DNA of 58,568 nucleotides from Christensenellaceae bacterium (GTDB taxonomy: Bacteria > Bacillota > Clostridia > Christensenellales > DTU072): assembly GCA_031288735.1 (NCBI GenBank), contig JAITQU010000114.1:1-58568 (forward strand). The letters run 5' to 3'. A program made the translations under genes and the position numbers. The notes below the pieces were generated by a model. That model saw only the letters and a program-made list of their open reading frames with translations. It had not been told where the DNA came from and did not search any database. This document shows, piece by piece, positions 15,841 to 50,339 of the stretch; position 1 is the stretch's first letter; each line of letters begins with the position of its first letter.

Positions 15841-15849
15841 AACATCAGG

Positions 15850-27900: not shown

Positions 27901-30900
27901 TCTATTAATGCTCTTGCGAAATATCTTGAAAACAATGGTCAAAAGCAAAATATAGTCAATGAAGCGTACAGGGGAGAAATCGTCATAACAGGTGTGGCTT
28001 TTTCTCTGTGTGGTGCGGCAGATTTGCTTTCACTAAGAAACGTTTTTTCGTCTCAATACAGTCAGATTGGCTACCCTAATTCTCGTCGCCGCAAAGATAC
28101 CAAAACAGCGCTTTTAAATATGGGAATGCAAGATAAACTCTACCGTTTTGGTATGGCGGCGTACCTAAGCGATATTGATTTGTTTGATAATGATTATTTT
28201 CGTATTGGAAAAGATGAAGCAAATGCGATGGACCCCGCGCACAAGTTATTGCTAACTATAGCAGATCGCGCTTTTACCGATGCAAATTTTGGACACGATT
28301 TTAACGGAAAAAATAGTGCAGTAGTTTTTGGAGCACCAGAGAATATTGGATATCAAGATTACGTTACTCGTTGTTACCCGAATCTAAGTCGTGCTGCTAT
28401 GCTAAACCGAGTTGGTTCCAGCATAGTCGGTAGAATACAGCATTTTTACAATCTGACAGGTCCGGCTTATCTTATAGATAGTGCATGTTCATCAGGACTT
28501 TCTGCTCTTTATAACGCTTGCGCTATGATACGTGCTGGAGATTGCGATTCAGCCCTTGTTGGTGGAGTTAATTTGTTAAACCCACTGGATATTTCTGGAG
28601 AACAAAAACCAGAAATTCTTTCTCATCGTCATCATGCTAATACTTTTGCAGCAATAGCAGACGGTACGGCAAGAGGAGAAGGTTGTATCTGTTTGGTTTT
28701 AGAAAAGAAAGAAGATGTCGAACGAGCAAATCGAACATTTTATGCCGAGGTAATAGGTGGTGCCACTAATAACGATGGATTTTCAGCCAGCGTCACAGCA
28801 CCAAACGGTAGTGCACAAGTTCATCTTATTCGATCTGCTATGAAAAATGCTGCTATTAAGCCATCGGATTTTGGTCTCATAGAAACTCATGGAACTGCTA
28901 CCCAGTTAGGAGACAGTGTGGAACTTAAGGCTCTTGGTGATGTGTTTTCAGAAAGAATAGGGCGAGGCAAATGTGCTTTAAGTGCGGCAAAAACAGTATA
29001 TGGCCATTTGGATTCAGTTTCAGGGTTGCTGGGTGTGATAAAAACTATTCTTTCTTTATACTATCGTGAACTTTATCATTTTATTGGTGTAGACATTCCA
29101 ACTGAGCGGTTTGACTTTATCGAGTCACATTTTTATATGCCAGATCAAGTAATACCTTTTCCTAAAAACTGTAGTGATGATCACATTTGTGGTATTAGTA
29201 GTTTTGGCCTTAGTGGTACCAATGTACATATGATTTTACGACAAGGGAATCGTACGTCTGAGGAAAAAGTAAAAGTGCAACAACATCAGAAATTAAAACG
29301 TTGCTGGTTACCAGATGAGCCAGAACATCGATTTGTAGGAGATAAAGTCCAAGGGAAGACACAAATTCAAACGAGGCAAACTTGTGAAGAAATTGATAGG
29401 GAACTGTCTGAAAAAGTGGCTCAACTTAATAAAGTAAATGAAGTTTCTTACAATATGCCTTTTTATGAAATGGGTTTTGATTCGGTTTCTATAGTTCAAC
29501 TTCGAATTTTTATTCAGTCAAATTATGGATTTGAGTTACCTGTTTCGCCACAAGACACTATTTCTTCAATTGCCGATGAAGTTTTTCGAAAATCAGAAAA
29601 GAATCCATCTGAGTCAAAAAAGCGGCAGCACAAGAATAAAGTGATTACATCGGTACTAAACACAATGTTTTATGAAAATTGGGAAGACTACCAATTTCGT
29701 GTATTGGTATCTGATTTTGCTAGAGATTATGTCAAAAAAACTCGCCTTTCGCGGGAGCGAATGTTGGATGAAAAGTTAGAGTGGGCAAATGGACGATTTA
29801 TTACTGGTCAGACAAAAGGGCTCGATGAGCTTTCTTACCCCATTATAGCAAGTAGAGGCATGGGGTCTGAGATGTGGGACATTGATGGAAATTACTATAT
29901 TGACTATGCTATGGGGTTTGGTGTCCATTTTTTTGGATACAATCATCCTAAAATTGAAAGTGCTGTTGTCAAGGAAATGCAAAACGGCCCAGTGTTAGGA
30001 GCATTGATGAATACTCCATTTCAAGTAGCAGAAAAAATTAGCAATTTAACAGGAATTGAACGAGTATCTTTTTGTAGTTCTGGGACAGAAGCGATGATGA
30101 ATTTACTACGAATTGCTCGAGCTGTCACGAGTCGTAATTGTGTTGTGATGTTTGAGGGATCTTTTCATGGAAGCTTTGATCCGTTGTTTGTCATGAAAAA
30201 TGAATTAGATGATTCCTTTCATCCGCTACCCCGCAGCATGGGTACACCAATAAGCTATATGGACGATATTGTCATGCTACCATACGGTGACGACGTTGCA
30301 TTAGAATATATCAGAAATCATGGAAGCGAATTAGCCGCTGTACTGGTAGAGCCGGTTCAAAGTAGAAATCCTGCACTACGTCCGGCAAAATTTTTACACA
30401 CATTACGCAAAATCACACAAGAAAACGGAATTCTGCTAATTTTTGATGAAGTTATTACTGGTTTTCGAAGTGGTACAGCGGGTGCTCAGGGTTATTATGG
30501 TGTACAGGCCGATTTGGTTGCCTATGGAAAGATAATTGGCGGTGGTTATCCCATAGGTGTGTTTGGCGGAATGGCACGTTACATGGACCTTTTGGATCAT
30601 CGAGGCAGTTTGAGGCCGACAGGCGCTGGTCATACTTTAGTTGGAAATGGCGGCACATTTCACGCCCATCCTACCAGTATGGCAGCAGCTTCAAAGGTAC
30701 TTGATATATTTGAAAAAGACGGAGAATCCTTATGTGCTGAAGCTAATGCAAAAACCGAACATCTAGCTATACGGCTCAACGAATTTTTATTGCGTGAAAA
30801 AACTGGAATACAGATAGAGCATTTTTGTTCTCAGTTTATCTTTACAGGTGGAGAAGCAAGAGCACTTCGACTACTACAATATTTATTGATTTATAATGGA

Positions 30901-32304: not shown

Positions 32305-33335
32305 AGACCCCATGCTATGTCATTGTATCTGAGATACTAAAAAGTAATCTAGAACAAATGAAAAAACGGATGGCTCCATGCAACATTTTTTATTCAATGA
32401 AATCCAATCCAACCAATGTTGTTGCCAGCGTTTTGTCTGAGATGGATTGTGGATTTGAGGTTTCTAGCTTAGCTGAGGCACAAATTTTAAATAATTTACA
32501 GGTTGGAGAAAAAAGAATTTATTGCGGTCTTCCTGTTTTGACTAATGAACAAGTTATGATTTTTTTAGAATTTGGGTGTAAGCGGTTCGTTTACGATACA
32601 ATACGTCAAATGAAACGCCTAGTTTGTTTTGCACCAAATACACAAAAAGTTTTACGACTTACAGTAGATGATCTTTCTCCTGGTGCGATTGGATTTGGCG
32701 TGTCTATCGCGGAACTTGAAGCTAATCCTGAATTATTAACGGAAGCTGACGGAATGAGCTTTCACATTAGTAACCATAGTGAAATAAACCAAACTTTGCT
32801 TGCATTGGACCGAGTAGAGCAGTTAATGATAACTACCCCGAAAATAAGGCTTCTAAATATTGGTGGTAGCTATACGCTTACAGGGCAGGAAGAAGATTAT
32901 GAATCACTGCGTCTTCGGTTGTATGCGCTAATGCGGCAACACAATCTTACGCTAATGTGCGAACTAGGTTCTGCCATTGTTAACACTGCAGGAAATGTAT
33001 TGACTCGTTGTGTTATGGTACGAGATAGGGGTGGTTTTACCGACGTGTTTTTGGACGCAGGGGTACCAGCTGGCGTTATGCGATCGCCAAAAAAATTATA
33101 CAATCTTTCACAGCCGAACCCATTACATAGGCATTTTTATCGTTTTTTTGATACTACTAGCATGCGCCAACTATTATTTCAAATGCATATAAAACAAAAT
33201 ATTTCAGAAGGAGATTTGCTAAAGCTTACTGATTACGGTGCATATTCGTTTTGCTACAGTAATCGTTTCCACTCTCAACCAATGCCAGAAATCTTTTTAT
33301 TTCAGGAGGAACAAGAATTTGAAAAATTGGTATGA
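32301..33335 (+). CDS. Fold-type III PLP-dependent decarboxylase (Orn/DAP/Arg decarboxylase family; BtrK/NspC-like size)
   Basis: The PLP-Lys context is FYSMKSNP. NIGGSY, ELGSAIV and the C-terminal DYGAYSFCYSNRFHSQPMPE are also present. ATG 32301 overlaps the megasynthase stop (ATGA) and follows GGAGGA at 32289-32294; the ORF-track start at 32256 is upstream. Confidence 0.7.
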   Translation: MKTPCYVIVSEILKSNLEQMKKRMAPCNIFYSMKSNPTNVVASVLSEMDCGFEVSSLAEAQILNNLQVGEKRIYCGLPVLTNEQVMIFLEFGCKRFVYDTIRQMKRLVCFAPNTQKVLRLTVDDLSPGAIGFGVSIAELEANPELLTEADGMSFHISNHSEINQTLLALDRVEQLMITTPKIRLLNIGGSYTLTGQEEDYESLRLRLYALMRQHNLTLMCELGSAIVNTAGNVLTRCVMVRDRGGFTDVFLDAGVPAGVMRSPKKLYNLSQPNPLHRHFYRFFDTTSMRQLLFQMHIKQNISEGDLLKLTDYGAYSFCYSNRFHSQPMPEIFLFQEEQEFEKLV

Positions 33336-33336
33336 A

Positions 33337-34653
33337 ATGTTTTGTCAAAACAGTTTGCAAAACGGCGCATTTGATTACACTTCGTTGGTTTCTCAGAGCG
33401 ACAGTATATCGGATGGGATTAATCATCTTGGAACTCCCGAACTTTACAGAAAACTTATTGCAGAAGAAATTATGCAAGGAATACGCATTAGTGGATATTC
33501 TCAATCCTCTGGGCACCCCTTGTTAACTTATGGTATTGGGATGTATGAACGAATACTTGCTGGAGAAGAGCCTGAAAACTCATGTTTTTGTGCACATGTA
33601 TGTGTAACGGTGGGAGCCACAGCCGCTATTAAGAGCTTGTTTTCTTATTTTGCTGAAGGAAAGGGGATTAATGATGTTATGTGTCTAGGCATGAACTATT
33701 ACCTATTTGCTGTGTGTGCGCAACGATATAATATGCGCTTATCCAATTTACTCGGAGAACACACAATTGCACCCAACTTGCAGCAAATTGTGTGTGAAAT
33801 TCCAAAACATAAAGGAGGATTGCTTATTCTGACGCAACCTATGAATCCGTCAGGTGAGCAATACTGTGAATCAGAACTCATACAAATTTTTTCAATGTGC
33901 AAAAACTACGATTATACAGTTATTTTGGACCTTTGTCAGATGGATGAGCTGAATCCATATGGCACTGAGGTAAATATTGGGCGAGCGATACTTACGTCTG
34001 GAGCAGAAAATACAGTAGTGATTGTTAATAGCTTTTCTAAAATTCGCAGTCTTGCTGGAATGAGATTGGGTTATCTAGCTACAAACGATAAAAAATTAGC
34101 TAAATATGCTACATACCTAAACGAAATCAATAGTTTTAATCATACCCTTGGATGTGAAAATGCAGTAATTGTTGATTTGTTTTATCGAACCATTTTACGT
34201 AGTGTTGAAGCAAGCCATAAATCAACCGTGCGACTTTTTAGGAACTTAATTTTGCAAACAGCCGGAGAATCCATCTATCAGCGAGTATTTAGAAAACTCT
34301 TGAAAAGTGAATCCCTGTTTGAGGATGCAACGAATTTCCAAAAAGAGATTGCATCTCAATGGAAAATTGTTAGAAAAAATTATGAATTTTGCAAACAGAA
34401 ACTTCTTTTAGGCACAGCGTCACGAATCACTCCCTTAAGCGGAGGCTATAATTTCTGTGTTCGTTTTCCATTATCACTGGGACAGAGTGAGACCGAATGG
34501 GCGCAGATGATAGGACGTTCTATTGGATCCAATGTGTTAACACAGCAAAATTTCTGTGTTAAAATGGAAAAAAATTCGAAGAATGTTTGGCTTAGACTAA
34601 GTGCAGCAATGGAATCAAATCGTTTTCAGGGCTATATTTCAAAATTAGTATAA
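33337..34653 (+). CDS. Class I/II (fold-type I) PLP-dependent aminotransferase
   Basis: TQPMNPSGEQY (the NPxG motif) and NSFSKIRSLAGMRLGY (the SxSK PLP lysine) are present. ATG 33337 lies 1 nt after the decarboxylase stop; the ORF-track start at 33238 overlaps the previous gene. Confidence 0.8.
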   Translation: MFCQNSLQNGAFDYTSLVSQSDSISDGINHLGTPELYRKLIAEEIMQGIRISGYSQSSGHPLLTYGIGMYERILAGEEPENSCFCAHVCVTVGATAAIKSLFSYFAEGKGINDVMCLGMNYYLFAVCAQRYNMRLSNLLGEHTIAPNLQQIVCEIPKHKGGLLILTQPMNPSGEQYCESELIQIFSMCKNYDYTVILDLCQMDELNPYGTEVNIGRAILTSGAENTVVIVNSFSKIRSLAGMRLGYLATNDKKLAKYATYLNEINSFNHTLGCENAVIVDLFYRTILRSVEASHKSTVRLFRNLILQTAGESIYQRVFRKLLKSESLFEDATNFQKEIASQWKIVRKNYEFCKQKLLLGTASRITPLSGGYNFCVRFPLSLGQSETEWAQMIGRSIGSNVLTQQNFCVKMEKNSKNVWLRLSAAMESNRFQGYISKLV

Positions 34654-34669
34654 GAAGGAGATAGACCTT

Positions 34670-34924
34670 ATGGAAATTAAAAATAGAATTATCAATGTAC
34701 TCAATAACGTACTCGGTCGGGAAGTCACAATAACCCAATTACTAGAAGGAGGTATTTATTCCCTAGGAATTCATTCTCTTGTATTCTTAAAAATTGTTGT
34801 TGGTATAGAGGAGGAATTTGATATTATGTTTGATGACAATGAAATTAATTATGAAATGTTTAGAACGTTTGAAGATTTTTGCGATTTGATTGAGCGTAAA
34901 ACTAAGGAGGGGGACTATAAATGA
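34670..34924 (+). CDS. Free-standing carrier protein (ACP/PCP-like) 1
   Basis: The protein is 84 aa, acidic and helical, with the Ser motif GIHSLVFLKIVVGIEEEFD in the carrier-protein position. A GGAG RBS is present. Confidence 0.65.
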   Translation: MEIKNRIINVLNNVLGREVTITQLLEGGIYSLGIHSLVFLKIVVGIEEEFDIMFDDNEINYEMFRTFEDFCDLIERKTKEGDYK

Positions 34925-35166
34925 ATAATGTGGAGTTAATACACAAAGTCAAGGGCCTATTGCGGGAGAAGAGTAGATATAAAGGCGAAATAGACATGGA
35001 TCATTCTCTAGCAGGCATGCTTAATTCCATTACCTACATCCAGTTTCTTATTGCATGCGAGGATGCGTTTGAAATCGAAATAGAAGATGGTGAATTAGGC
35101 ATGACTAATTTTTCCACTTTTCAAGATATGGTTGATTTTCTAACAAAAAAAGTGTATCAATCATGA
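34921..35166 (+). CDS. Free-standing carrier protein (ACP/PCP-like) 2
   Basis: The protein is 81 aa, with the motif GMLNSITYIQFLIACEDAFE in the equivalent position. The start overlaps the previous gene (ATGA). Confidence 0.6.
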   Translation: MNNVELIHKVKGLLREKSRYKGEIDMDHSLAGMLNSITYIQFLIACEDAFEIEIEDGELGMTNFSTFQDMVDFLTKKVYQS

Positions 35167-36386
35167 ATGTGGTATTATTGCTTGAAGGACAGGGTAGTTA
35201 CTCTACCGAAAAAACTAAACAGCTAATTCAACATGATTCAAACGCATCTGCGTTATGGAAAAATGCTGACAAAATTCTTGGATGGAGTATTAGCGATCTT
35301 GTACATAAAAACGAACATACAGGAATGCTGGAAACGGATCTTGCTCAACCGATGATTTTTTTAATGGAGTATACGGCGTGGCATTGTGCGAAAAACACCT
35401 TGCCAGAAGCTCCAAACTGTGTTGTCGGACATAGCTTGGGGGAGATTACTGCTTTGGCAGCAGCAGAGGTTTTATGTTTTGAAGATGCCCTTCTTTTGAC
35501 AGCTCGGCGTGGTGAGGTTATGCAGAAATTTACATCAAAAGAGCCTCAAGGAATGGCTGCACTTATTGGGGCTAGCTCTGCAGAAGCGGAGCAGCTATGT
35601 AAGCAGGTGTCTCAAGAGCTTGATTTAGTTTTGACTTGTGCAAATTACAATTCTCCATCGCAAATCGTAATTTCAGGGTACCGAAAGGCGTTGGAACGAG
35701 CTGCTGAACTTACCACGAGTGTACTAAAGCCACTGCAGGTTACGCGGGCATTTCATACACCGCTGATGAAGTTTGCAGCAGATGTAATGGATGAGGCAAT
35801 GTCAAAATTAAAATTTTATCCATCTAAAATTCCAGTTATATCTGGAGTAACAGCAAGACCGTATCCAGCATCATGGACTGTTCGTCATTTACTAAAGAAA
35901 CAAATTACAAGTCCTGTGCGCTGGACTGAAATCATGAACTATCTTCAGGAAAAAGGCTTTACTACTTTTTTGCAAACATCGGAGCGTACATTATTTCGAG
36001 ATATGAACCCGGAATTAAGAGATGTCGTTTGCTGGGGTAGCCTAGAGCAGTGGAGCAATGGAGAATTATACAATTTTGATAATCTTTTTCGAAAAGGGAG
36101 TTCAGTATTGTTTGCCGTTGGCGTCTTAAGTGATTGTCTACGAAAAATGATTGCAAATCCGTGGCCAGAAAATATAGCTAGTGAAGACGTGAAACAGGCA
36201 CAGGGTTGCTATCATACGGTCTTGGATATTTGGAAAAAACAGGCAAGCGAGCCTACCCAGAGAGAAGTCGGTTTGGCGCTGAAGAATCTTAGCAAAGTTT
36301 TAACTATAAAAAAAATCGACTCAAAAACCAAATCGGAACAAATTGAGAATATTTTAGAAAAATATGGCATCAAAGGGATGTATTGA
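35163..36386 (+). CDS. Free-standing FabD-like acyltransferase (trans-AT) with about 110-aa C-terminal extension
   Basis: LLEGQGSY, the active site GHSLGEITA and RAFHTPLM are present. The FabD-like core covers about 290 aa and is followed by a helical extension of unknown function. The start overlaps carrier protein 2 (ATGA). Confidence 0.85.
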   Translation: MNVVLLLEGQGSYSTEKTKQLIQHDSNASALWKNADKILGWSISDLVHKNEHTGMLETDLAQPMIFLMEYTAWHCAKNTLPEAPNCVVGHSLGEITALAAAEVLCFEDALLLTARRGEVMQKFTSKEPQGMAALIGASSAEAEQLCKQVSQELDLVLTCANYNSPSQIVISGYRKALERAAELTTSVLKPLQVTRAFHTPLMKFAADVMDEAMSKLKFYPSKIPVISGVTARPYPASWTVRHLLKKQITSPVRWTEIMNYLQEKGFTTFLQTSERTLFRDMNPELRDVVCWGSLEQWSNGELYNFDNLFRKGSSVLFAVGVLSDCLRKMIANPWPENIASEDVKQAQGCYHTVLDIWKKQASEPTQREVGLALKNLSKVLTIKKIDSKTKSEQIENILEKYGIKGMY

Positions 36387-36390
36387 GAAC

Positions 36391-39300
36391 ATGCAATTAT
36401 ACGAACTTTCTCATGCACAAAAAAGAATATTGCTTTCACAACAGATGTATCCAAATAAACCTGTATGTAATATTGGCGGGTATGCGATTTTTGACGGATA
36501 TGTGAAAATAGAAAATTTGAAAACAGCCCTTATTCGAACGGTAGAGTTTTATGATGCCTTTTCTATTCGTATTCGTCTCACAAGTGAGGGATATCGTCAA
36601 TATTTCCTTTGGCAAGAACCAGAACCCTCGCTTTGGGAATCAAACAAAACCACTATAGATAGCGAACAAACAGTGATATCCTTAGTAAGAGAAATGCTCG
36701 AAAAACCCTTTCCACTGCTCGACGAAGCACTGTTTCGAATTATGCTGTTGCGTTTGGGCAAAGATAGGGTTGGCTATGCCATATGTTGCCATCACATAAT
36801 ATTTGATGGATGGTCTATGCGTCTCTTTACCGATGCAGTAAACACGTTTTACAATGGAAGCATACCCCAAAAAAGCTCTTACGTTGATTATTTGAAACAG
36901 GAACAGCAATATCTTGAATCTTCACAGGCGGAAAGGGATCGAATGTTCTGGGAACAAATGTTAGAAAAATTCAAGCCAGACAAGATAGAGGGCAGTAGTG
37001 CATGTTATGGATGGCGAGAGGAATTTTTGATGACAGAGTCTCTAGGACAGAGATTTACGGAAATAGGAGATCGTTTTGGCGGGATCAATATGATATTGCA
37101 TGCCTTTGTTGGACTGATGGAAGTTTACCGTAGAAACAACCAACCTGCGTTACTTAGTATTCCAATTTATAGTCGCCGTGGAAAGCGGATGAAATCAACG
37201 GTCGGCATGTTTACTAGCACTATGTTGCTTGGAATTCCTTGTGAAGCAGAATGGACACTTTCTGAATTTGTTGAAGAAATTAAAAATCGATTTAGAAAAT
37301 CGTTAAGACATCAGCGATGGCCCTATAATCTTATAAAAAACAGAGAGCATGCTCAATTTCGATGCAGCGTTAATTGTTATAATATGAATTTGCATGCTTC
37401 TATGGGAACAGCCTCTGGTAAATACCGTGAAATTTATCCTGGCTGTCAAGCTATTCCCGTGCAAATAATTTTAAATACTTGGGAAAAGCCGTGGCGTATT
37501 GTTTTTGATTTGAGAAGCGACTTGTTTCGTAAAGAGGATAGCAAAGTGATGATGCTGTTTTTCGAAAATTTTTTAACTGTATTAGAAAAAGACCCCGAAT
37601 GCACTGTCATGGATTTTGTTCATAAGCTAGAAGAGCAAGAACGAAGTCGTCAGAAAGGAACTTTCTTGGAAGATTTGCAAGTTTTCTCGCTTACCAAACA
37701 ATTTCAAAAGATATTTGAAATAGAAAATTCAGAAGAAGTAGTCATTTATTATGATGAAAAAAATATAAATAAAGAACAGTTATCAAATTATCTTTGTAGT
37801 GCAGCAAAAAGCCTTACAGATGCTGGGTTACAGTGTGGAGATAAAATAGTGTTGCTAATGGAAAATTCTCCGGAATATGTAATTTATACTTTAGCCGCAG
37901 TAGGACTTGGAATCATTTTTATTCCGCTAGATATCGATACATTGGAAGAGCAAATTTCCTTTGTGCTGAGTAACAGTGCTGCAGCAGCAATAGTTACTAA
38001 GATGAATCTTTCAATAAATTTTCAAAAAAAAGTTATTCGTCCACTTTTAAGCCAAGACACACAATTTTTTCAGTGGCCAGAACTTTCTGATACGGAAATA
38101 GTCTATTGTATATATACTTCGGGCACAACGGGCAAATCCAAAGGGGTCACCGTATCCCGTGGAGCTTTAGCTTCTTACCTAAGTTGGAGTAGAACTTACT
38201 ACAGTTGCAGTGAAAAGAAACTAAATTTTTTGATGTTCACATCTCCTGCGTTTGACTTATCGCTTACTGCGCTGTTTTTGCCGCTGACAAGTGACGGGCA
38301 ACTTGTTATTGTACCTCGTGGGGGGATACATCAATTACATAACCTGCAGAATATTTCGCAGGTAACAGCAATTAAAGCAACACCGTCCCACTTGGAACTA
38401 CTCTTACGCACCGACAAATCAAACCTTTCGCTAAAGGCAATTATCTGTGGAGGAGAAGAGTTAACTGTTTCTCTGGCCAAACGTTTACAGCAGCGCTTTG
38501 GTGTGGATTGTCAAATCTATAATGAATATGGTCCCACCGAATGTACGATTGGGTGTATGTATCATAAATTTAATAGTTTGGATGGAGAAGATCGCGGAGT
38601 CTCTATTGGACGTGCTGCTCCAGGATGCCGTGCCTACGTTGTGTCTGAAAACAAACACCTTGCTTATGGCGGAACGATAGGAGAAATTTATTTAGCTGGA
38701 AAGCAGCTTGCAACAGGTTATTTAAATGAACCGAAAAAAACACGGGAAGCATTCCTTCAAAATTTTTTAGGAGAGACAGTAACTTACCGCACAGGTGATC
38801 TTGCACGCTATGAAAACGGCAAATTAACTTATTTAGGTAGGAAAGATAATCAAAAAAAAATTAATGGATATCGTATTGAACTTGGAGGGGTAGAGAATGC
38901 TATAAAATCTATCCCTGGAGTAACAAATGCCGGAGTTTGGGTTGAGCCGGGTGTGCGGCAGACACTTTGTGCGGCAGTAGAGACGACTATTTTGGCAGAA
39001 AAATTCATTCGCACAGAGCTTTTAAAAATGCTACCAGTTTATTGTATGCCTCACCATTTTTTCTTACGAGAACAATTGCCACTAAATCAGAATGGAAAAT
39101 TGGATACGAGTCTATTTCAAATTCAAACAAAGTCACCTCAAGGAACAGTTCGAAAAGTAGTGGAATCGGCTATTCGAAAAGTTCTAGATTATAACGGTGA
39201 TATAGATAAATTTGATTACTTTGCTGCAGGAGGAGATTCTGTTCGTGCATTGTTTTTATCCACGGCACTAGAGGAAGCAGGGCTTTCCCTTTCGATGGCA

Positions 39301-40452
39301 GATATTCTAACACATCCTAAAATAAAAGAATTAGAGGCATTGGTTATAGATACTAAGATGCAACAAACGCAGACTTTAGAAGAATACCCACTACCTAAGC
39401 ATCTTCAGTATCTGCGCGACACATGTACGGATTTTAGAAAATATCGACATACTTTGGTATTTTGCTTAAATAATGAATTATCTCAAAAATGGGCAGATGA
39501 AAGCTACCACTTACTTTTAAAAAAATTTCCGGCTTTGCAGACCGAATTTGAGTATGAAAAAGGTGTTTTGCGATATAACCGTAATCATATAGGGTCAGCT
39601 ATTCATGCTAAAAGAGGAGAAATGCGAAAGAAGCTGGAGATGCATAGTGACCACTTGTTTAATTTTGTGATTGAATACGATTTAGCAGAAACGAAAATTG
39701 GGATTTCGCTTCATCACATCTTAGCCGATGCGGTTTCTTGGAAATTGATTTTGGGTGCAATGTTGCTTCTAACTGAAGGAAAGGATATTCAACAAATTGG
39801 AGACATGAGGTTATACCAATTAGATGAAGCGATGGAATATAATTGGCCTAATCAAGTGCCACTATGTCTTGGAGAATATTTTACATGCTCAGCAACAATT
39901 CCATTGACAGAACCATGCGATATTTATACATTTATTGATTTATGTACTGAAACGCTTGCGAAGCGAACCGAAACTGCAAATATGGTGGCTTTATGCGACT
40001 GGAATGGGCGAATGATGCTCAAACAAACAGGGATGACAACTGAAATAGGATGCTATTCTGTTTTCCTGCCAATATACCCTAAAAAAGGAATGGTCAGAAG
40101 TCAGATAGAAGAGCTTCTAAATCAAAAAAAGATTGACCTTCCTGCGCAAGAAAAAGCAATCAGAATCAATTTTTTGGGCGATCTTGGACGTCTTATGCCA
40201 AGTAAATTAAAATTTGTGCCAGAATCCTTAGAGTGGAGCATGGAATCCTGTAGTGCGCATGGGTGTGCAGCAGAAATTACTTGTGTATGTAGTGCGACAG
40301 AAATGAAAATTTATATTGCAACTCGCGGAATTCTGGATTTAAAACTTCTGCCACATATTCTTGAAGATGTTGTAAAACGAGTAGAAAATCCTATACGAGA
40401 AGATTTGTTAGGGCTTAATAAGTCAGAAATAGATGCCTTATTTGACGACTGA
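36391..40452 (+). CDS. NRPS module C(starter-like)-A(Asn-like code)-T-E(epimerase-type)
   Basis: The N-terminus MQLYELSHAQKRILLSQQMYP resembles lipopeptide starter C domains. The C motif HHIIFDGWS lies at 36790-36816. The A domain has YTSGTTGKSKG (38113-), NEYGPTE, YRTGD and NGKLDTS. T has GGDS with Ser at 39238. The C-terminal domain has HHILADAVSWKLI (39712-), DWNGRM and TTEIGCYSVFLPIYP, which follow the E-domain patterns HHxxxDxVSW, EGHGRE and TVGWFT. An alternative start is ATG 36364. Confidence 0.92.
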   Translation: MQLYELSHAQKRILLSQQMYPNKPVCNIGGYAIFDGYVKIENLKTALIRTVEFYDAFSIRIRLTSEGYRQYFLWQEPEPSLWESNKTTIDSEQTVISLVREMLEKPFPLLDEALFRIMLLRLGKDRVGYAICCHHIIFDGWSMRLFTDAVNTFYNGSIPQKSSYVDYLKQEQQYLESSQAERDRMFWEQMLEKFKPDKIEGSSACYGWREEFLMTESLGQRFTEIGDRFGGINMILHAFVGLMEVYRRNNQPALLSIPIYSRRGKRMKSTVGMFTSTMLLGIPCEAEWTLSEFVEEIKNRFRKSLRHQRWPYNLIKNREHAQFRCSVNCYNMNLHASMGTASGKYREIYPGCQAIPVQIILNTWEKPWRIVFDLRSDLFRKEDSKVMMLFFENFLTVLEKDPECTVMDFVHKLEEQERSRQKGTFLEDLQVFSLTKQFQKIFEIENSEEVVIYYDEKNINKEQLSNYLCSAAKSLTDAGLQCGDKIVLLMENSPEYVIYTLAAVGLGIIFIPLDIDTLEEQISFVLSNSAAAAIVTKMNLSINFQKKVIRPLLSQDTQFFQWPELSDTEIVYCIYTSGTTGKSKGVTVSRGALASYLSWSRTYYSCSEKKLNFLMFTSPAFDLSLTALFLPLTSDGQLVIVPRGGIHQLHNLQNISQVTAIKATPSHLELLLRTDKSNLSLKAIICGGEELTVSLAKRLQQRFGVDCQIYNEYGPTECTIGCMYHKFNSLDGEDRGVSIGRAAPGCRAYVVSENKHLAYGGTIGEIYLAGKQLATGYLNEPKKTREAFLQNFLGETVTYRTGDLARYENGKLTYLGRKDNQKKINGYRIELGGVENAIKSIPGVTNAGVWVEPGVRQTLCAAVETTILAEKFIRTELLKMLPVYCMPHHFFLREQLPLNQNGKLDTSLFQIQTKSPQGTVRKVVESAIRKVLDYNGDIDKFDYFAAGGDSVRALFLSTALEEAGLSLSMADILTHPKIKELEALVIDTKMQQTQTLEEYPLPKHLQYLRDTCTDFRKYRHTLVFCLNNELSQKWADESYHLLLKKFPALQTEFEYEKGVLRYNRNHIGSAIHAKRGEMRKKLEMHSDHLFNFVIEYDLAETKIGISLHHILADAVSWKLILGAMLLLTEGKDIQQIGDMRLYQLDEAMEYNWPNQVPLCLGEYFTCSATIPLTEPCDIYTFIDLCTETLAKRTETANMVALCDWNGRMMLKQTGMTTEIGCYSVFLPIYPKKGMVRSQIEELLNQKKIDLPAQEKAIRINFLGDLGRLMPSKLKFVPESLEWSMESCSAHGCAAEITCVCSATEMKIYIATRGILDLKLLPHILEDVVKRVENPIREDLLGLNKSEIDALFDD
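39370..40449 (+). other. Epimerization-type domain at the C-terminus of the C-A-T-E NRPS
   Basis: HHILADAVSW has the VSW of E domains rather than the GWS of C domains. PLPKHLQYL sits where E domains carry PLTPIQxWF. DWNGRM sits at the EGHGRE position (Asp for Glu). IGCYSVFLPIYP fits the VGWFTxxYP pattern. Confidence 0.65.
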
Positions 40453-40472
40453 TTATAGAGGTTAAAAATAAA

Positions 40473-41468
40473 ATGGTAATGGATCGAATTTCAGGAATTA
40501 TTCCCTACAACAAATGCTTTTACTATAACTGTTTTCACAGTCATTTATTTCCAATCATAGAGAAAAATCGTGGTAATTGTACCCTTTTTCTCGCAAATGG
40601 GATTCCTTATTTTCAAATACAAACAAATGAGACAAGCAAACGTATTTTGGTACGATTTGCATTCCAATCTGACTATACAGTTCTTTTAGCGCAACAAGGT
40701 ATTTCAGTAAGGAAGTTTTCCGCAAGTGATTGGAAGCAAGTCTTAGATAAAGCCTTACTGAATGAAGAGCCTGTGATTGTTGGTGTTGATGGTTGGTACT
40801 TAGATTATCGTGATGATCTTTATCATAAAATACATTGGCCACATACGCTCTTGATATTTGGTGTGGACCAAAGTAATAAAACATATTTAGCTATAGATCA
40901 ACCTACCAGGGAAAACATGCAATTTTCAGAGTGGACACTTACAAGCCATGTGTTAGAAAGTGCGTATGAAGGTTTTTGTAAACAAAAAGGTCATGATCCT
41001 TTGTTTTCTGCTGACGAAATGATACTGTTTCATTTTGAGGGTAACCCAGACCCTTGTACTGCAAAGGAAATAGCGATATTTTGGCATAAAAATCGAAAAA
41101 TGCAGCGAATGAAAATTTTTCAAGGACTCTATAAATTGGCAGAATTTAAATGTTACTTAATGAATTGTTTAGATATGTCTTCTAGTAGTAGTGACGCATG
41201 CGCATTTGTTCTGGAGGGGCTAAATGATATTGTAAAACAAAAGCGTTGGGAAGTGTTTTTTCTAAAGTATTTGTTACCATCGCATGAGAATTGTGCAAAT
41301 ATAGCACAAAACCTCCTAAACTATTGGAGTAATATTAGAAATTTAGTTGGGTATGTCTTTCTATCTGGGTATTCACGAAAAAAAACCGTGCAGCATATTT
41401 ACGAAAAATATGAAATTGTGCTCAAGACAGAGCGAGAATACGCTGTCTTGGCAGAAGAAGAGGTATAG
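40473..41468 (+). CDS. BtrH-like / C39-like papain-fold Cys-His protein (putative carrier-protein-dependent acyltransferase or peptidase), paralog 1
   Basis: An N-terminal Cys context (YYNCFHSHLF) is followed by EPVIVGVDGWYLDYRDDLYHKIHWPHTLLIFGVDQSNKTYLAIDQP, with an all-helical C-terminal half. The pattern is shared with 44345-45319. The family assignment is from memory of the BtrH_N/DUF4872 architecture and is not verified. Confidence 0.45.
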   Translation: MVMDRISGIIPYNKCFYYNCFHSHLFPIIEKNRGNCTLFLANGIPYFQIQTNETSKRILVRFAFQSDYTVLLAQQGISVRKFSASDWKQVLDKALLNEEPVIVGVDGWYLDYRDDLYHKIHWPHTLLIFGVDQSNKTYLAIDQPTRENMQFSEWTLTSHVLESAYEGFCKQKGHDPLFSADEMILFHFEGNPDPCTAKEIAIFWHKNRKMQRMKIFQGLYKLAEFKCYLMNCLDMSSSSSDACAFVLEGLNDIVKQKRWEVFFLKYLLPSHENCANIAQNLLNYWSNIRNLVGYVFLSGYSRKKTVQHIYEKYEIVLKTEREYAVLAEEEV

Positions 41469-41471
41469 TTT

Positions 41472-43130
41472 ATGCATATAGGATTGATGGGGAACTCTTT
41501 ACGCCCAATGATTCAGCAAGGAACGGTTTATGGATATGACATCGCAGCAAATGAACTAATTGATAGTATTTTTCGCTACAGCAATGCAGATCGTATAACC
41601 TGTCTTTATGAACCAGAACAATTTCAGCAAGAACTTTTAATGCGCAAAAAAAACAAAGTGCTTCGCAAACAGGAAACAGAAAAAGAAATTTCGCTGCTGA
41701 GCGAATATGATCTTCTATTTCATTCAGACAAGACTAAGATGTTGGATATGGAGATACTTCATAATGTGAGTAGTGAGTTTTCTCCTCTTTTAGCGCTGCG
41801 TGAGGTTATTGGTCGCCCCATTCCAATAACTTTTACTATCCATTGTGCTAGTTATCCTCAGCTTTTGAATAACTTCTTTCTTCCGATGAGCATGATGTGC
41901 TTTAAATCGTATGACGCACTGATTTGCACTTCAGCAGCGGTTCGCTTAACGGTTGAAAAAATTTTGAAACGTACTAGAGAATATTCGGGTAAGGGAAATC
42001 AATTGAGATTAGAACAAATCCCTCTAGGTGTGGATACCAACCGGTTTGCTCCTGGAAGACGATTTGAAGCCAGAGAAAAATATAATATTCCTAAAGATGC
42101 TTTTGTAATCCTTTGGCTTGGACGTATTTCCGCTTGTGATAAAGCAGATTTATGTCCACTTTTGCAGGTTGTCGCAAAGCTGATTCGAAAAAATCCAAAT
42201 AAACAAATCCGTTTAGTCATTGCAGGATACCAGCCCGAAGGGACATCGTATTTGCAGGCGCTACAAGGGCTGACACGTACACTTGAGGTGAGCGAAGAAA
42301 CCATTTTTTTTGACAGACATGATATTTCTACACGTAGCGATTTATACGCGCTTAGTGATGTGTTTACTTCTCCAGTGGACAACGTACAAGAAACTTTTGG
42401 TATTACTCCTATCGAGGCGATGTCTTGTGGTGTTCCTCAAGTAGTAAGCGATTGGAATGGGTATCGAGATACTGTGGTGGATAAAGTTACTGGTTTTCGT
42501 ATACCAACATATTGGTGTAAATGTGATGAAGATTTGTGCTTATTAGGGGAATTGCCATCGGATCAGCAACACCGAAGCCAACTTCATCATTATTTACTTA
42601 GCCAGACAGTTGCAATAGATCCAAACGCATATTTAGCAGCATTTCAGACACTTTTAGATAATGAAGATTTACGGCGAAAGATGTCAGAAGCTTCTCGCTC
42701 AGAGGCACTTAAGCGGTTTGACTGGAAAAATGTTATTTCAGCGTACGATATTCTTTGGAAAGATTTATCGAAACAAGCAACTACTTCCAAAGAAAGCTTT
42801 AATCCTGATAAGCTTCTTTTACCAAATTATTGTGAAGATTTCGCTTCATATCCTACTTCTTTTTTAGGAGAAAATGTTCCTTTTTCCCGAATTAATGGTA
42901 AAAAAGCAATGCTTAAAGATTCTCATCATGCTCCGTATGGCGTGGAGTCTATTTTGTTTCCAAATGAATTGCTAGATCAAATTTTGATTCGCCTGTCTCA
43001 AAGCTTGTGTACTATGAAAGAGTTTTGTGCGGAACATCCTACGCAGCCTCAGGCACAAATTCGTAGAAGTTTTATGTTTTTATGTAAATATGGGATGATT
43101 TGTCCATATCTCGAAACAAAAGGTAGGTAA
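41472..43130 (+). CDS. GT-B fold glycosyltransferase (GT4-like)
   Basis: The C-terminal Rossmann half carries ILWLGRISACDKAD. It also carries the EX7E-type motif ETFGITPIEAMSCGVPQVVSDWNGYRDTVVDKVTGF. Confidence 0.8.
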   Translation: MHIGLMGNSLRPMIQQGTVYGYDIAANELIDSIFRYSNADRITCLYEPEQFQQELLMRKKNKVLRKQETEKEISLLSEYDLLFHSDKTKMLDMEILHNVSSEFSPLLALREVIGRPIPITFTIHCASYPQLLNNFFLPMSMMCFKSYDALICTSAAVRLTVEKILKRTREYSGKGNQLRLEQIPLGVDTNRFAPGRRFEAREKYNIPKDAFVILWLGRISACDKADLCPLLQVVAKLIRKNPNKQIRLVIAGYQPEGTSYLQALQGLTRTLEVSEETIFFDRHDISTRSDLYALSDVFTSPVDNVQETFGITPIEAMSCGVPQVVSDWNGYRDTVVDKVTGFRIPTYWCKCDEDLCLLGELPSDQQHRSQLHHYLLSQTVAIDPNAYLAAFQTLLDNEDLRRKMSEASRSEALKRFDWKNVISAYDILWKDLSKQATTSKESFNPDKLLLPNYCEDFASYPTSFLGENVPFSRINGKKAMLKDSHHAPYGVESILFPNELLDQILIRLSQSLCTMKEFCAEHPTQPQAQIRRSFMFLCKYGMICPYLETKGR

Positions 43131-44341
43131 TGAAAAATTGGAACAAAAAAATTCAGTATGCCAAAGTGCATATTTGTGGACAAGAAACGGAGATATTTGG
43201 TATTCCTGATAGACTATATCAGCTAGCATCCAATAGTAAAGCGTTTACTGCTCTCGGAATTTTGCTTTTAGTCCAGCAAAAAAGATTGAAATTGGATTTG
43301 CCAACCGATGCCTATTCTGACAAGCTTTGTTTCAGTGACAAGCACGGTTTGCAACAAACAGTAACTATTCGCCAATTACTAAACCATTATGGAGGGCTTG
43401 ATAAAAACACCATACGTTTTCAGCATGAGGGCGAAATGGATATAACAGATGCAGCACAAGCTATTACAAAAATGCCGCTAAAGAGTGCCCCCGGAACCAA
43501 GTTTTGTTATGCTACAGGCGGATATATTGTATTAGGCAGAATTATTGAGATAATTAGCGGTCAATCCTACGGTGAGTTTATTAGAAAAAACATATTTGCT
43601 CCTCTAGACCTAGACGCAACAGATGTGGAGCAAGTGCCACTGCGTGGTTTAAAAGATGGTCTCTTTGGGGTACGCTATGCTAATTGGAAAGGTTGTGGAG
43701 CGTTTGCTCCTGCTGGCTACTTGATTAGTAGCCCAAAAAACTGCGCTCGTTGGTTAGAACTTTTGCTTGGGAATATTGAAATTGAAAATGAATACAAGAT
43801 ATTGCTGCAACGTAGTTTAGATTTACGTGATTACGTGCAAACAAAGGAAAACGGCGTTTTTTATGGGTTTGGTTGGTACTATGATAAAAGGCAAGACGTG
43901 TATTTTCATGATGGAAGAAATCCTTATTTTTCTTCTTGTATTGCATTTTCGTCCGCAGGAAAAGGGGCAGCAGCACTGTGCAACATTCACTTGAGTCGTT
44001 CTGTAGAAGAAGTATTCGAATTTATGGGGTTGGAAAAAGAAAAAAGATTGCCACATAATTTTAAAGCAATGATTGTACGAATTGGGATTGCATTATTATT
44101 TATATCGTGCGCTTTAGTTTTGCATGTAGTTGGAGTTGGTGTAAAAGCGATTGTCTTTTCAGTGTTTGCAACGACTATAACACAAATAGCGATATACCTT
44201 ATTTCGGGTGAGCTTTCAATTCGACAACAATATCTTTGGTTACCAGAATGGCTATTTGTACTACTATGGGTGTTTCCCGCCGGAATTGTTATTTTGATTA
44301 TGGGTGTTTTAAACCTGTTTTCTATACGAGGAGGATTATAA
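43130..44341 (+). CDS. S12 / beta-lactamase-fold serine hydrolase with three C-terminal transmembrane helices (ClbP-like architecture)
   Basis: The SxxK motif is S34-N-S-K37, with the Ser codon at 43229. FCYATGGYIVLGRIIEIISGQSYGEF is the YxN-region pattern and FHDG is the HxG motif. Three hydrophobic helices lie in aa about 316-400 (IVRIGIALLFISCALVLHVVGV, AIVFSVFATTITQIAIYLISG, WLFVLLWVFPAGIVILIMGVLNLF). No N-terminal signal peptide is evident. Confidence 0.8.
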   Translation: MKNWNKKIQYAKVHICGQETEIFGIPDRLYQLASNSKAFTALGILLLVQQKRLKLDLPTDAYSDKLCFSDKHGLQQTVTIRQLLNHYGGLDKNTIRFQHEGEMDITDAAQAITKMPLKSAPGTKFCYATGGYIVLGRIIEIISGQSYGEFIRKNIFAPLDLDATDVEQVPLRGLKDGLFGVRYANWKGCGAFAPAGYLISSPKNCARWLELLLGNIEIENEYKILLQRSLDLRDYVQTKENGVFYGFGWYYDKRQDVYFHDGRNPYFSSCIAFSSAGKGAAALCNIHLSRSVEEVFEFMGLEKEKRLPHNFKAMIVRIGIALLFISCALVLHVVGVGVKAIVFSVFATTITQIAIYLISGELSIRQQYLWLPEWLFVLLWVFPAGIVILIMGVLNLFSIRGGL

Positions 44342-44344: not shown

Positions 44345-45319
44345 ATGCTTCAATTAAATTATCGAACTCAAATTACAGAAGTTCCTGACTGCATGATGGG
44401 GTCTATTGTAAACGCAGCATTATACTATGGGATGGACTATGCATATTTATATCGCGGAATATGGGTATTTCGCTTTGAAGCCAAAAGTGAGCAGAACGAT
44501 AGTTTTTGGAAAAGGCTATCCACCGATGAACTTGTCAATTCACATAAGCAGATTGAACTATACCATGGGCTTCAACTTCAGCGTTATGAAGCCTGTGACA
44601 AGGAAGAATTTCTTTCCGTGCTTAAAAAAGAATTACAAAATGGTAATCCTGTCGCAGTTGGATTTGATGCTTTTTATTGTCCATGGTCTGGTGTTTATCG
44701 CAGACATACCTTACTGCATTTCTGTCTAATAGTAGGCTTGGATGAAAAAAGTCGTGAAATTCTTTGTGCGGACCCATACTTTATGGCGAATATTCGTCCA
44801 TGTCCTATCGACGAAATGATGGCAGGCTTTTTAGAGTTTAGCCTATTTCGCAAGATACAACCCGTATGCGGTTTAGAAACATGGAAACAGGATGTTCTGC
44901 TTTGTGCAAAACAAAAAATTGATGATGACGTGTTCACCCAAATGCGGGAAATGAAGGATGAAATTTTAAATTCTCGTGGATTCGTTTCGGAAATTAGACA
45001 GCAAAATGATAAATATTCTTATGAATTGTTTTATCAAATAAAATATATTCATCATAGCAGAGTTAATCACGGAGAATTTTTGCGATACGTTGCAAAGCAT
45101 GTAGGTCAGCAGGCTCAAATGTTGAATAAAAGCGCAAAATGCTTAGATGAAGCGGGCAAATTGTGGGCAACAACAGGGCAGTGTTTTACTAAACTTGCTT
45201 ATCTGGATGATAAAAAAAGAACCGAAAAATTGATTGCTGGAATTGCTGAAAGGATGGAAAAATGTATTGAGTTAGAATACCTTGCTGCAACACATATTTT
45301 AGAAAGTATAGGAGAATGA
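44345..45319 (+). CDS. BtrH-like / C39-like papain-fold Cys-His protein, paralog 2
   Basis: The N-terminal Cys context is VPDCMMGSIVNAAL. It is followed by NPVAVGFDAFYCPWSGVYRRHTLLHFCLIVGLDEKSREILCADPY and a helical C-terminal half. An AGGAGG RBS is present. Confidence 0.45.
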   Translation: MLQLNYRTQITEVPDCMMGSIVNAALYYGMDYAYLYRGIWVFRFEAKSEQNDSFWKRLSTDELVNSHKQIELYHGLQLQRYEACDKEEFLSVLKKELQNGNPVAVGFDAFYCPWSGVYRRHTLLHFCLIVGLDEKSREILCADPYFMANIRPCPIDEMMAGFLEFSLFRKIQPVCGLETWKQDVLLCAKQKIDDDVFTQMREMKDEILNSRGFVSEIRQQNDKYSYELFYQIKYIHHSRVNHGEFLRYVAKHVGQQAQMLNKSAKCLDEAGKLWATTGQCFTKLAYLDDKKRTEKLIAGIAERMEKCIELEYLAATHILESIGE

Positions 45320-49736: not shown

Positions 49737-50339
49737 ATGTCAGATTACTACGTATACCGTGTTGACAATGGGCTTTACATCAATGTTACTAATCGTTGTT
49801 CTTGTAATTGTGTGTTTTGCGTACGGAAATCAAGCGATGGTATTAACCAAGGTGAAAGCTTATGGCTACAAAAGGAGCCGTCTCTGGAGGAAATTACACA
49901 AGATATCGTTACTGCTGACCCGACTGGTTATTACGAGGTTGTTTTTTGTGGATACGGTGAACCCACGGAATGTCTGGAAACAGTTCTTGATGTTGCTAAA
50001 TTCATTAAAAAAAATTATTGCATCCCTATTCGTCTCAATACAAATGGGTTAAGTGACTTAATCTACGGTTGCTCCACCGCTAAAGAGATGGAAGGGTTAA
50101 TTGACACAATTTCTATAAGTTTGAATGCACCTACCAAAGAAGAATATCTTTCCATATCTAACCCTCGTTTTGGTCTTGGTTCTTTTGATGCAATGTTGCA
50201 ATTTGCTCAAGACTGTAAAAAGTATATTCCTAATGTCTTATTTACTGTAGTAGATGTCATAGATTCTGAAAAAATTGAAACTTGTAAAAAATTAGCAGCT
50301 CAAATGAACATAGAGTGTCGAATCAGAACAAAGATATAG
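49737..50339 (+). CDS. Small radical SAM protein (about 200 aa; resembles the TatD-associated radical SAM family)
   Basis: YINVTNRCSCNCVFCVRK carries CX3CX2C. FCGYGEPTE and RLNTNG are also present. Composition still matches the island (24/60 GC at 49801-49860). Confidence 0.7.
   Translation: MSDYYVYRVDNGLYINVTNRCSCNCVFCVRKSSDGINQGESLWLQKEPSLEEITQDIVTADPTGYYEVVFCGYGEPTECLETVLDVAKFIKKNYCIPIRLNTNGLSDLIYGCSTAKEMEGLIDTISISLNAPTKEEYLSISNPRFGLGSFDAMLQFAQDCKKYIPNVLFTVVDVIDSEKIETCKKLAAQMNIECRIRTKI

Follow-up and report, generated by a model that had tools for sequence, protein, structure and literature searches.

We analyzed a window of 58,568 nucleotides, that is, one whole contig from the metagenome-assembled genome (MAG) of an uncultured Christensenellaceae bacterium, a gut-type member of the Clostridia. 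The window encodes a nonribosomal peptide synthetase (NRPS) read as condensation (C), adenylation (A), thiolation (T) and epimerization (E) domains, the A domain being of the Asn type, and, two genes downstream, a hydrolase of the S12 family that resembles ClbP of the colibactin pathway. It is quite likely that these two proteins respectively install and remove an N-acyl-D-Asn cap. The best explanation overall, in which we have less confidence and which we still judge probable, is that the cap, once installed, is removed by a peptidase facing the cytoplasm. An acyl-D-Asn cap and its ClbP-type removal are themselves already known, and another cluster of that kind alone would be a further member. 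What is new here is that the conserved ClbP homologue has no signal peptide and shows an inverted charge bias, and that it occurs together with a small family of E domains not recognised before. In the literature that we searched, we found no description of a cytoplasm-facing or signal-peptide-less ClbP homologue, nor of the short E-domain family.

The pathway could run in four steps. Judging from the domain types, the A domain would load Asn onto the T domain and the putative starter C domain would acylate it with a fatty acyl group. The terminal domain would then epimerize the residue to N-acyl-D-Asn, and its acidic C-terminal tail would dock it to a synthetase of 3446 aa that begins with a D-donor-type C domain. 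This synthetase would extend the chain by one Ser-like and one Asn-like residue and by one malonyl unit, its aminotransferase making a beta-amine, and the product would be tailored by glycosyl-, carbamoyl- and methyltransferases together with BtrH-like acyltransferases. Last, the ClbP-like membrane peptidase would cleave after D-Asn and free the N-terminal amine of the product. The cap would be lost before or during export, at the cytoplasmic face of the membrane.

The Asn module and the ClbP-like hydrolase

The open reading frame of the ClbN-like C-A-T-E protein spans 36364-40452 (1362 aa) on the + strand, which is also the strand of all genes and features located below within the biosynthetic island. 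A public record of the same protein begins 9 codons later (MQLYELSH) and counts 1353 aa, and the start is probably the ATG at 36391. All the strings from which the first-pass annotation had read the domains were present in the translation, namely, MQLYELSHAQKRI, HHIIFDGWS, FDLSLTA, AIKATPSH, IICGGE, NEYGPTECTIGC, NGK, GGDS and HHILADAVSW. Pfam placed Condensation at residues 11-416, AMP-binding at 458-787 and PP-binding at 933-994. The first of these is a putative starter-type (lipoinitiation) C domain with the motif HHIIFDGWS (36394-37611); it is followed by the A domain (37735-39108) and by the T, or carrier, domain with its Ser in GGDS (39160-39345). Among solved structures, the top match of this C domain was the RzmA starter C domain (7C1H, 2e-19), and the CDA-C1 starter was also listed, with LCL domains ranking closely behind. 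The C-A-T part aligned end to end with ClbN over ~1000 residues at 26% identity (E = 8e-99), the alignment with the ClbN C domain beginning at residue 15.

The specificity code of the A domain was obtained by anchoring on the A4 (FDxS), A5 (NxYGPTE) and A10 motifs, and the same procedure was run on ClbN of E. coli CFT073 (pks island). The code D-L-T-K-I-G-E-I-G-K that had been proposed from a manual alignment was recovered, and ClbN gave DLTKVGEVGK, identical at 8/10 positions with both changes conservative. The code was also compared with DLTKLGEVGK, which the annotation had taken as canonical for Asn and matched at 8/10 positions. Nine of ten positions, the sole change being conservative, were shared with DLTKIGEVGK, which a 2025 survey of A-domain signatures gives for an albicidin domain (PMC12283262). 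The residue of that domain is beta-cyanoalanine, for which the survey considers formation in situ from Asn probable. The query has E322, where the Asp-type code DLTKVGHVGK has H322, and all 8 full-length members of the NRPS family, the query counted, have an Asn code. Asn specificity of the A domain, as predicted from the code, is thus supported. A 341-bit match of the A domain to LgrA, considered as a link to a Gly domain, was rejected: the score adds up two A domains present on the same chain, and one LgrA A domain by itself scores 163 bits.

The hydrolase gene (43130-44341, 403 aa) lies past a BtrH_N gene and a family 4 glycosyltransferase (GT4) gene; like other genes of prodrug peptidases, it has a ClbN-like partner, an NRPS gene with C and A domains, within +/-10 genes. 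Its product comprises a catalytic domain (residues 1 to ~307) followed by three transmembrane (TM) helices. The S12 motifs announced by the first-pass annotation were all found (S34-N-S-K37, Y127-A-T129 and H260-D-G262), with a Pfam Beta-lactamase match (PF00144) at 1e-40. S34, K37, Y127 and H260-x-G262 align to S95, K98, Y186 and H327-x-G329 of ClbP, which was the best match by sequence in the PDB (1e-25), ahead of an FmtA-like protein and then general S12 enzymes. The predicted model, with a mean predicted local distance difference test score (pLDDT) of 80.7, gave full-length ClbP at Foldseek ranks 1-4 (7MDF, 7MDC, 7UL6, 7MDE), over ~400 aligned columns that include the three TM helices and with TM-scores of 0.72-0.75. 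When catalytic domains were compared by neighbour joining, 169/200 bootstraps placed the query inside the clade that contains E. coli ClbP.

Residue roles in this family were taken from the ClbP-structure paper (PMC9889268). According to this study, N331 is strictly conserved in prodrug peptidases, not across S12, and binds the D-Asn side chain; position 188 is Ser/Thr in prodrug peptidases and Asn in the wider S12 family; and W466 contacts the acyl chain and is essential. The query has N264 at the N331 position and T129 at position 188. Among seven signal-peptide-less hydrolases, that is, the query plus six homologues, all have Asn at the former position, all have S or T at the latter, and all keep the equivalents of S95, K98, Y186, K240 and W466. 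We conclude that the hydrolase belongs to the ClbP clade of S12 peptidases and predict, from sequence and model, that it cleaves N-acyl-D-Asn amides. In short, the A domain was of the Asn type, the hydrolase was of ClbP type with real TM helices, and the terminal domain (see below) grouped with E domains; a non-Asn/Asp A domain, a non-ClbP or TM-less hydrolase, or a C-type terminal domain were the findings that the annotation had named as fatal to its proposal.

The pair can be compared with several known systems. The ClbN initiation module of the pks island consists of starter C, A(Asn), T and E domains, the order also predicted for the query module, and ClbP shares with the query the S12 fold, the three-helix TM domain and residues S95, K98, Y186, S/T188, N331, K240 and W466. 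In contrast, the query lacks the signal peptide, the N-terminal helix and strands and the positively charged TM1-TM2 loop of ClbP, and it has the changes E92->Q, H257->F and W460->I. By BLASTP, the E domains of the two modules have only the His motif in common. Unlike the colibactin island, the query cluster has neither a MATE exporter (ClbM) nor a ClbS homologue, and its downstream chemistry is unrelated (Ser/Asn, beta-amino extension, glycosylation, carbamoylation). XcnA/XcnG for xenocoumacin and AmiA/AmiB for amicoumacin follow the same two-part logic, with an N-acyl-D-Asn first module and a membrane peptidase of ClbP length (PMC9889268). They were compared here by description; XcnG and AmiB are described as acting after export, and the cluster context differs. 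ZmaM, PamJ and EdeA, for zwittermicin, paenilamicin and edeine, belong to the same prodrug-peptidase family, in Firmicutes, and serve polar, amine-rich NRPS/polyketide synthase (PKS) products. They are ~1100 aa long with a C-terminally fused ABC half-transporter (PMC9889268), whereas the query is a standalone protein of 403 aa and the ABC genes are separate in the clusters homologous to its own.

Membrane topology of the hydrolase

The three C-terminal TM helices claimed for the hydrolase proved to be hydrophobic and superposed on those of full-length ClbP. Helix 1 (residues 311-334; 44060-44131) is preceded by the K/R-rich segment KEKRLPHNFK. Helix 2 (residues 338-358; 44141-44203) comes after a TM1-TM2 loop of a few residues with a single Lys. 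The linker helix between TM2 and TM3 (44219-44239) ends in W370, the invariant equivalent of ClbP W466, and helix 3 (residues 374-401; 44249-44332) was delimited by hydrophobicity and model.

At the other end of the protein, there is no N-terminal hydrophobic segment, as had been noticed before. Indeed, an in-frame stop codon immediately precedes the ATG of the hydrolase, whose A is common to the TAA of the GT4 gene (1-nt overlap), so that a signal peptide is impossible in this protein. We searched for a signal peptide hidden in another frame or in an upstream extension and found none. The C-terminal extension of the GT4 enzyme was also ruled out as a source of a TM or signal segment, since it contains no hydrophobic stretch. 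The N-terminus is just as short in a 59%-identical hydrolase from another sample, and at the four homologous loci checked, upstream extension would add at most 18 codons, all non-hydrophobic. Altogether, an N-terminal hydrophobic segment was found in 0/7 hydrolases of this set (five of the six homologues coming from syntenic clusters), whereas all other three-TM homologues in the database search carry a hydrophobic N-terminus.

The K/R bias by which the catalytic domain of ClbP is placed outside the cell is lost or reversed as well in the six signal-peptide-less proteins scored. On the TM1-TM2 loop plus the C-tail, canonical proteins have 8-11 K/R and the signal-peptide-less ones 0-2; before TM1 plus on the TM2-TM3 linker, the counts are 0-5 and 2-8, respectively. 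The TM1-TM2 loop itself is ~20-27 residues long in canonical proteins and 3-13 in the others. The signal-peptide-less hydrolases never formed a single clade (0/200 bootstraps). Five of them make up a tight clade (200/200), and those of two syntenic clusters, L007 and L009, nest among signal-peptide-bearing sequences, apart from the five. This indicated that the missing signal peptide tracks the cluster family and not the peptidase lineage, the signal peptide having apparently been lost more than once within the cluster family.

Given the absence of a signal peptide and the reversed K/R distribution, topology rules suggest that the catalytic domain probably faces the cytoplasm, and with it the TM2-TM3 linker that holds the acyl chain, since both must lie on one side of the membrane. 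The first-pass annotation had proposed a prodrug mechanism of the ClbN/ClbP type, with the reservation that topology might differ from that of ClbP. The pairing and the chemistry by which acyl-D-Asn would be installed and removed held up, and so did the reservation. Activation after export, on the other hand, probably does not apply here, because the absence of the signal peptide is conserved and comes with a reversed charge bias. If the catalytic domain is cytoplasmic as predicted, acyl-D-Asn would be an intracellular protecting or membrane-anchoring group rather than part of a prodrug activated outside, and an intracellular cap fits the coupling of the hydrolase gene to a GT4 of cytoplasmic type. 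Only tentatively, as we are almost evenly divided about it and lean slightly the other way, do we put forward the complete scenario: the cap would anchor and protect the intermediate at the cytoplasmic membrane; the peptidase, its signal peptide lost on apparently more than one occasion, would have turned over in the membrane, so as to lie on the same side as the nucleotide-sugar-dependent GT4; and self-protection would be provided by something else, for example, an SpoU-type methyltransferase.

Some observations weigh against removal of the cap in the cytoplasm. The topology was predicted from the missing signal peptide and a simple K/R count, and this count is tied, 2 vs 2, in two signal-peptide-less members. 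There is no dedicated exporter within the higher-GC island of the window. Further points against the proposal, taken up below, are the divergent residues and missing N-terminal elements of the peptidase, the shortened E domain, the in-frame stop in L009 and two related clusters in which a hydrolase was not seen. The steps of the mechanism are all predicted from sequence and fold.

The alternative that survives best is the classical prodrug scheme. Here the peptidase would reach the outside through an unrecognised targeting route or through TM1-driven translocation of its N-tail, and the precursor would be exported and activated extracellularly, as for colibactin, xenocoumacin and amicoumacin. 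All characterised relatives work in this way (PMC9889268), two family members have no net K/R bias, and ABC exporters adjoin the hydrolase gene in homologous clusters. The query also keeps the catalytic and D-Asn-binding residues and W466, and its whole-protein fold superposes on ClbP. We nonetheless consider this scheme unlikely. None of the seven hydrolases has, or could gain from upstream DNA at the five loci checked, an N-terminal hydrophobic segment; throughout the family, the positive charges of the TM1-TM2 loop and C-tail that fix the canonical orientation are gone, these segments being deleted or neutral; and the apparently repeated loss of the signal peptide took place inside one cluster family. 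To our knowledge, bacterial membrane-protein insertion offers no precedent for the translocation of a folded N-terminal domain of ~310 residues in the absence of a signal peptide.

Prodrug self-resistance in nonribosomal peptide biosynthesis has its textbook example in the acyl-D-Asn/ClbP system, whose characterised members all activate their product outside the cytoplasm, and ClbP is a drug target in research on colibactin-linked cancer. If the cytoplasmic reading is true, a ClbP homologue that cannot be secreted, in a conserved cluster family, would reveal a second use of this chemistry and separate the notion of a protecting or anchoring group from that of a prodrug. An analogy, and no more than an analogy, is offered by butirosin (BtrH/BtrG/BtrI/BtrK), in which a gamma-glutamyl protecting group is attached during assembly and removed intracellularly after tailoring. 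The query cluster also has two BtrH_N proteins, two free acyl carrier proteins (ACPs) and a pyridoxal phosphate (PLP) decarboxylase of the diaminopimelate (DAP)-decarboxylase fold. The group and its remover are unrelated in the two cases, gamma-Glu and a cyclotransferase in butirosin versus acyl-D-Asn and an S12 peptidase here.

The terminal domain and the probable hand-off to the large synthetase

The terminal domain of the Asn module (39376-40449, ~358 aa) carries the motifs HHILADAVSW, CDWNGR at the EGHGRE position, IGCYSVFLPIYP and INFLG. Direct comparisons were of little yield. The match to Pfam Condensation covered the His-motif region only and stayed below the cut-off (E = 0.0047, 16 bits), BLASTP against the ClbN E domain aligned the His motif alone (E = 0.017), and a single-sequence phmmer search against the PDB gave nothing significant. 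Exhaustive phmmer of 1.84 billion representative proteins returned 13 relatives, canonical E domains not being among the matches. Eight of the 13, the query counted, are full-length NRPSs of 1329-1399 aa with the same architecture.

The family as a whole was more informative. When its profile was run against PDB sequences, the five best matches were all E domains, with BacC-E (6e-8), TycB3-E, TycA-E and GrsA-E in the lead, and within the BacC E-COM-C chain 9RDE it scored 30 bits on the E domain versus 8 bits on the C domain. For the AlphaFold2 model of the terminal domain (mean pLDDT 88.5; predicted TM-score, pTM, 0.86), Foldseek put E domains in all of the first ten places (PvdL-E2, 2XHG, 5ISX, 6TA8, 9BFD and 9BFG among them), followed by C and CT domains. 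An alignment of 10 family sequences, 22-32% identical to the query, kept HH..D..W and, at the EGHGRE position, an acidic residue followed by xxGR, with GC(Y/F)S replacing GWFT and NF/YLG replacing FNYLG. The canonical E domains that were the best profile or fold matches (TycA-E 2XHG, GrsA-E 5ISX, TycB3-E 6TA8, BacC-E 9RDE and PvdL-E2) share with the family HH(I/L)(L/V)VDG(I/V)SW, the acidic-xxGR element and GWFT-like and FNYLG-like motifs. Since the family profile and the predicted fold both group with epimerization and not condensation domains, we assign the terminal domain to a distinct, shortened E-domain subfamily and predict it to be an epimerase. The earlier call of an E domain, as opposed to an LCL or terminal C domain, was thereby borne out.

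Beside these shared elements, three cysteines never vary within the family (GC[YF]S, CSAYGC) and an AE(I/V)T motif is present, all of which canonical E domains lack. The family was found in metagenome assemblies only, through exact-protein look-ups. A scan of GTDB species genomes with a pattern of the E family, in which DG was required so that the query itself could not be recovered, gave only weak canonical-type E domains at 20-29% identity.

The acceptor side provided an independent line of evidence. The 3446-aa synthetase (C-A-T-C-A-T-KS-ACP-aminotransferase-C, in which KS is a ketosynthase) is encoded at 21964-32304. Significant matches of its first C domain, C1, were almost only D-donor C domains (McyB, TycB1, the C that follows the E domain of BacC, SrfA-C and PvdL-C3), and the second, C2, which served as an internal control, matched the L-donor domains LgrA, AB3403 and TycC6. 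By sequence, C1 is of the DCL type and C2 of the LCL type, and the matches of C1 point to the delivery of a D-residue to this synthetase. The E domain of the Asn module is the only one in the cluster. It ends in an acidic tail, LNKSEIDALFDD, which we take to resemble the COM donor docking helix that follows E domains; the 9RDE entry bears the title "cis-E-COM-C". With a putative starter-type C at its start and a docking-like tail facing a D-donor C domain, the C-A-T-E protein is best seen as the first module and not the last.

In the 3446-aa synthetase, the A1 code is DVIHVSLVDK, Ser-like, and the A2 code is DMTKIGEVGK, Asn-like. A2 (26311-27963) has SD at the A4 motif where FD is usual, and C2 has HHLLCDQAVS where HHxxxDG is usual. 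The last C domain (31081-32301) reads YNGWIDGWS for HHxxxDG, without the catalytic His; it comes after the in-line aminotransferase, with no A or T domain beyond.

A second alternative is that the terminal domain is inactive, a degenerate scaffold or docking domain of the C superfamily, in which case the cap would be N-acyl-L-Asn or would not be formed in this way and the hydrolase would have another substrate. The domain falls below the Pfam threshold, as said, and it is ~80 residues shorter than canonical E domains (~358 vs ~430-450 aa), with a sequence alignment that covers only the N-terminal half, or lobe. Alone in its family, the query has DA for DG in the His motif, and it has Asp for Glu at the second catalytic position. 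A domain so shortened, aligned by half and altered at two motif positions, could be impaired. Against inactivity, the 10 aligned sequences keep, as invariant or conserved residues, both His, the motif Asp and an acidic residue where canonical domains have EGHGRE. In addition, the model groups with E domains by fold, the C domain that would receive the product is a D-donor one, and the peptidase keeps the D-Asn-specific equivalents of N331 and T188. We regard this alternative as improbable.

Still less credible is that the hydrolase is decaying, or is an unrelated membrane esterase or penicillin-binding protein (PBP) that merely happens to be located in the cluster. In its favour, the hydrolase gene of L009 (20661-21935) has one in-frame stop (...EYIAE*RGGDSF...), which could reflect a pseudogene, a sequencing error or read-through. 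In two related clusters, L012 and L015, a hydrolase was not seen in the ~23 kb of recovered DNA. The N-terminal helix and strands of the fold are missing from the query itself, in whose model residues 1-23 have pLDDT <50. Opposed to decay or chance location are the conservation of catalytic and specificity residues among proteins 20-37% identical to one another and the retention of the gene in six versions of the cluster from different samples, mostly with translational coupling to the GT4 gene.

Three residues of the query peptidase depart from the prodrug-peptidase consensus, which weighs against the main proposal. The equivalent of E92 is Q31 in the query, and Q also in the homologue P0002, with E in L010, L013, L007 and L009 and the reading FELAS in L016; in ClbP, E92 is highly conserved, orients N331 and excludes D-Asp, and the E92Q variant keeps D-Asn activity and gains D-Asp (PMC9889268). 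Position 257, His or Asn in prodrug peptidases, is F192 in the query and F in three homologues, a change of little weight since H257A ClbP is as active as the wild type (PMC9889268). The equivalent of W460 is I in the query and L009, V in P0002 and L in L010, with W kept in L013 and L007; this residue is strictly conserved in 271 prodrug peptidases, and W460A is active (PMC9889268). The family offers natural variants at E92, H257 and W460, together with a minimal E-domain family, for structure-function work.

SurE-type enzymes, of the S12 fold, act on NRPS lines that end in an E domain and lack a thioesterase, and SurE (6KSU) was among the sequence matches of the hydrolase; that the S12 protein is such a PBP-type off-loading thioesterase or cyclase, releasing a chain ending in a D-residue from the terminal T-E, is the least probable reading of all, as SurE matched at 1.6e-5 vs 1e-25 for ClbP, the query has a ClbP-like three-helix TM domain with W466 and not a soluble lipocalin-like domain, N331 and T188 are kept, and the C-A-T-E protein is a first module.

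The biosynthetic island and related clusters

The Asn module and the hydrolase belong to an NRPS/trans-acyltransferase (AT)-PKS island of ~31 kb (~18.2-49.7 kb), every gene of which is on the + strand. The cluster has a GC content of 36-40% and the flanks 30-34%, consistent with the AT-rich host that had been noted. Housekeeping genes occupy the contig ends, with clpB, ackA, plsX-fabH-fabD-fabG-fabF, rnc and an acyl-CoA dehydrogenase gene with etfBA on the left and adhE on the right. The stretch 14800-18200 has no long open reading frames and contains broken transposase or integrase pieces upstream of the island (IS256-like, 17606-17836; rve-like, 16626-16814). This transposase debris, between the housekeeping etfA and the first cluster gene, suggests that the cluster is an acquired island. 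The 16-18 kb region is strongly purine-rich (GC skew 0.37, AT skew 0.29). In a plasmid collection, megablast with an 8-kb stretch gave no match.

At the head of the cluster, an SpoU/L7Ae RNA methyltransferase gene (18222-18965) abuts that of an Sfp-type phosphopantetheinyl transferase (from 18966), and a type II thioesterase gene follows (from 19671). The methyltransferase, a 2'-O-RNA enzyme of the SpoU type with an L7Ae-like N-terminal domain, scored under all NCBIfam cut-offs (RlmB, 61 bits; NshR/TsnR, 44 bits). It might confer self-resistance by target modification. Downstream of the 3446-aa synthetase gene come those of the PLP decarboxylase of the DAP-decarboxylase fold (from 32256), a class I/II aminotransferase (from 33238), the two free-standing ACPs (from 34670 and 34921) and a free-standing FabD-like acyltransferase (35163-36386), likely the trans-AT for the AT-less KS module. 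The hydrolase gene is preceded by those of a BtrH_N-like protein (40473-41468; Pfam), a putative acyl-carrier-to-amine acyltransferase and a conserved neighbour by synteny, and of the GT4 enzyme (41472-43130). The ~200-aa C-terminal extension of the latter (42522-43127) has no Pfam or NCBIfam match. After the hydrolase gene, we found genes for a second BtrH_N/C39-like protein (44345-45319; Pfam), a carbamoyltransferase (from 45323), a methyltransferase (from 47279) and a B12-radical S-adenosylmethionine (SAM) enzyme (from 48102). Zwittermicin, too, is carbamoylated. The cluster points to an uncharacterised glycosylated and carbamoylated amino-polyketide-peptide.

The 32256-35166 segment and the two BtrH_N genes make up a butirosin-like tool set (PLP decarboxylase, aminotransferase, two ACPs), which is conserved in L010, L013 and L016 and suggests the transfer of an amino-acyl side chain from an ACP to an amine. 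Just beyond the GC drop, 49737-52642 holds a radical SAM gene that scores above the cut-off of TIGR04100 ('rSAM pair'), a gene for a 422-aa protein without family match and a GT2 glycosyltransferase gene. After the latter, and outside the higher-GC island, lies an MsbA-like ABC exporter gene (52713-54443).

Exact-protein look-ups of the NRPS homologues led to syntenic clusters in other metagenomes (L007-L011, L013, L014 and L016). They share the big synthetase, the trans-AT, the Asn module, the GT4, BtrH-like genes, the carbamoyltransferase, the B12-radical SAM enzyme and the gene of the beta-lactamase fold. The hydrolase and C-A(Asn)-T-E genes occur together in five further cluster versions (seven loci) from other samples, with hydrolases of 396-445 aa that are 20-37% identical to the query. 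The overlap between GT4 stop and hydrolase start, 1 nt in the query, is 7-11 nt in L010, L013 and L016. One cluster version is widespread in metagenome samples (68 blocks of the collection).

The relatives of the Asn module that diverge most, P0052 and P0054, are located in L012 and L015, and L015 has an acetyltransferase instead of the hydrolase, with HamA- and PARG-like genes nearby. Finally, in L002, a contig of an uncultured Clostridia MAG, the region 1113-10594 encodes an NRPS with an E-type domain beside an S12 hydrolase of 514 aa with a signal peptide and three TM helices. This hydrolase has Asn at the 331 position and Gly at position 188, and L002 may be a separate cap-removal system.

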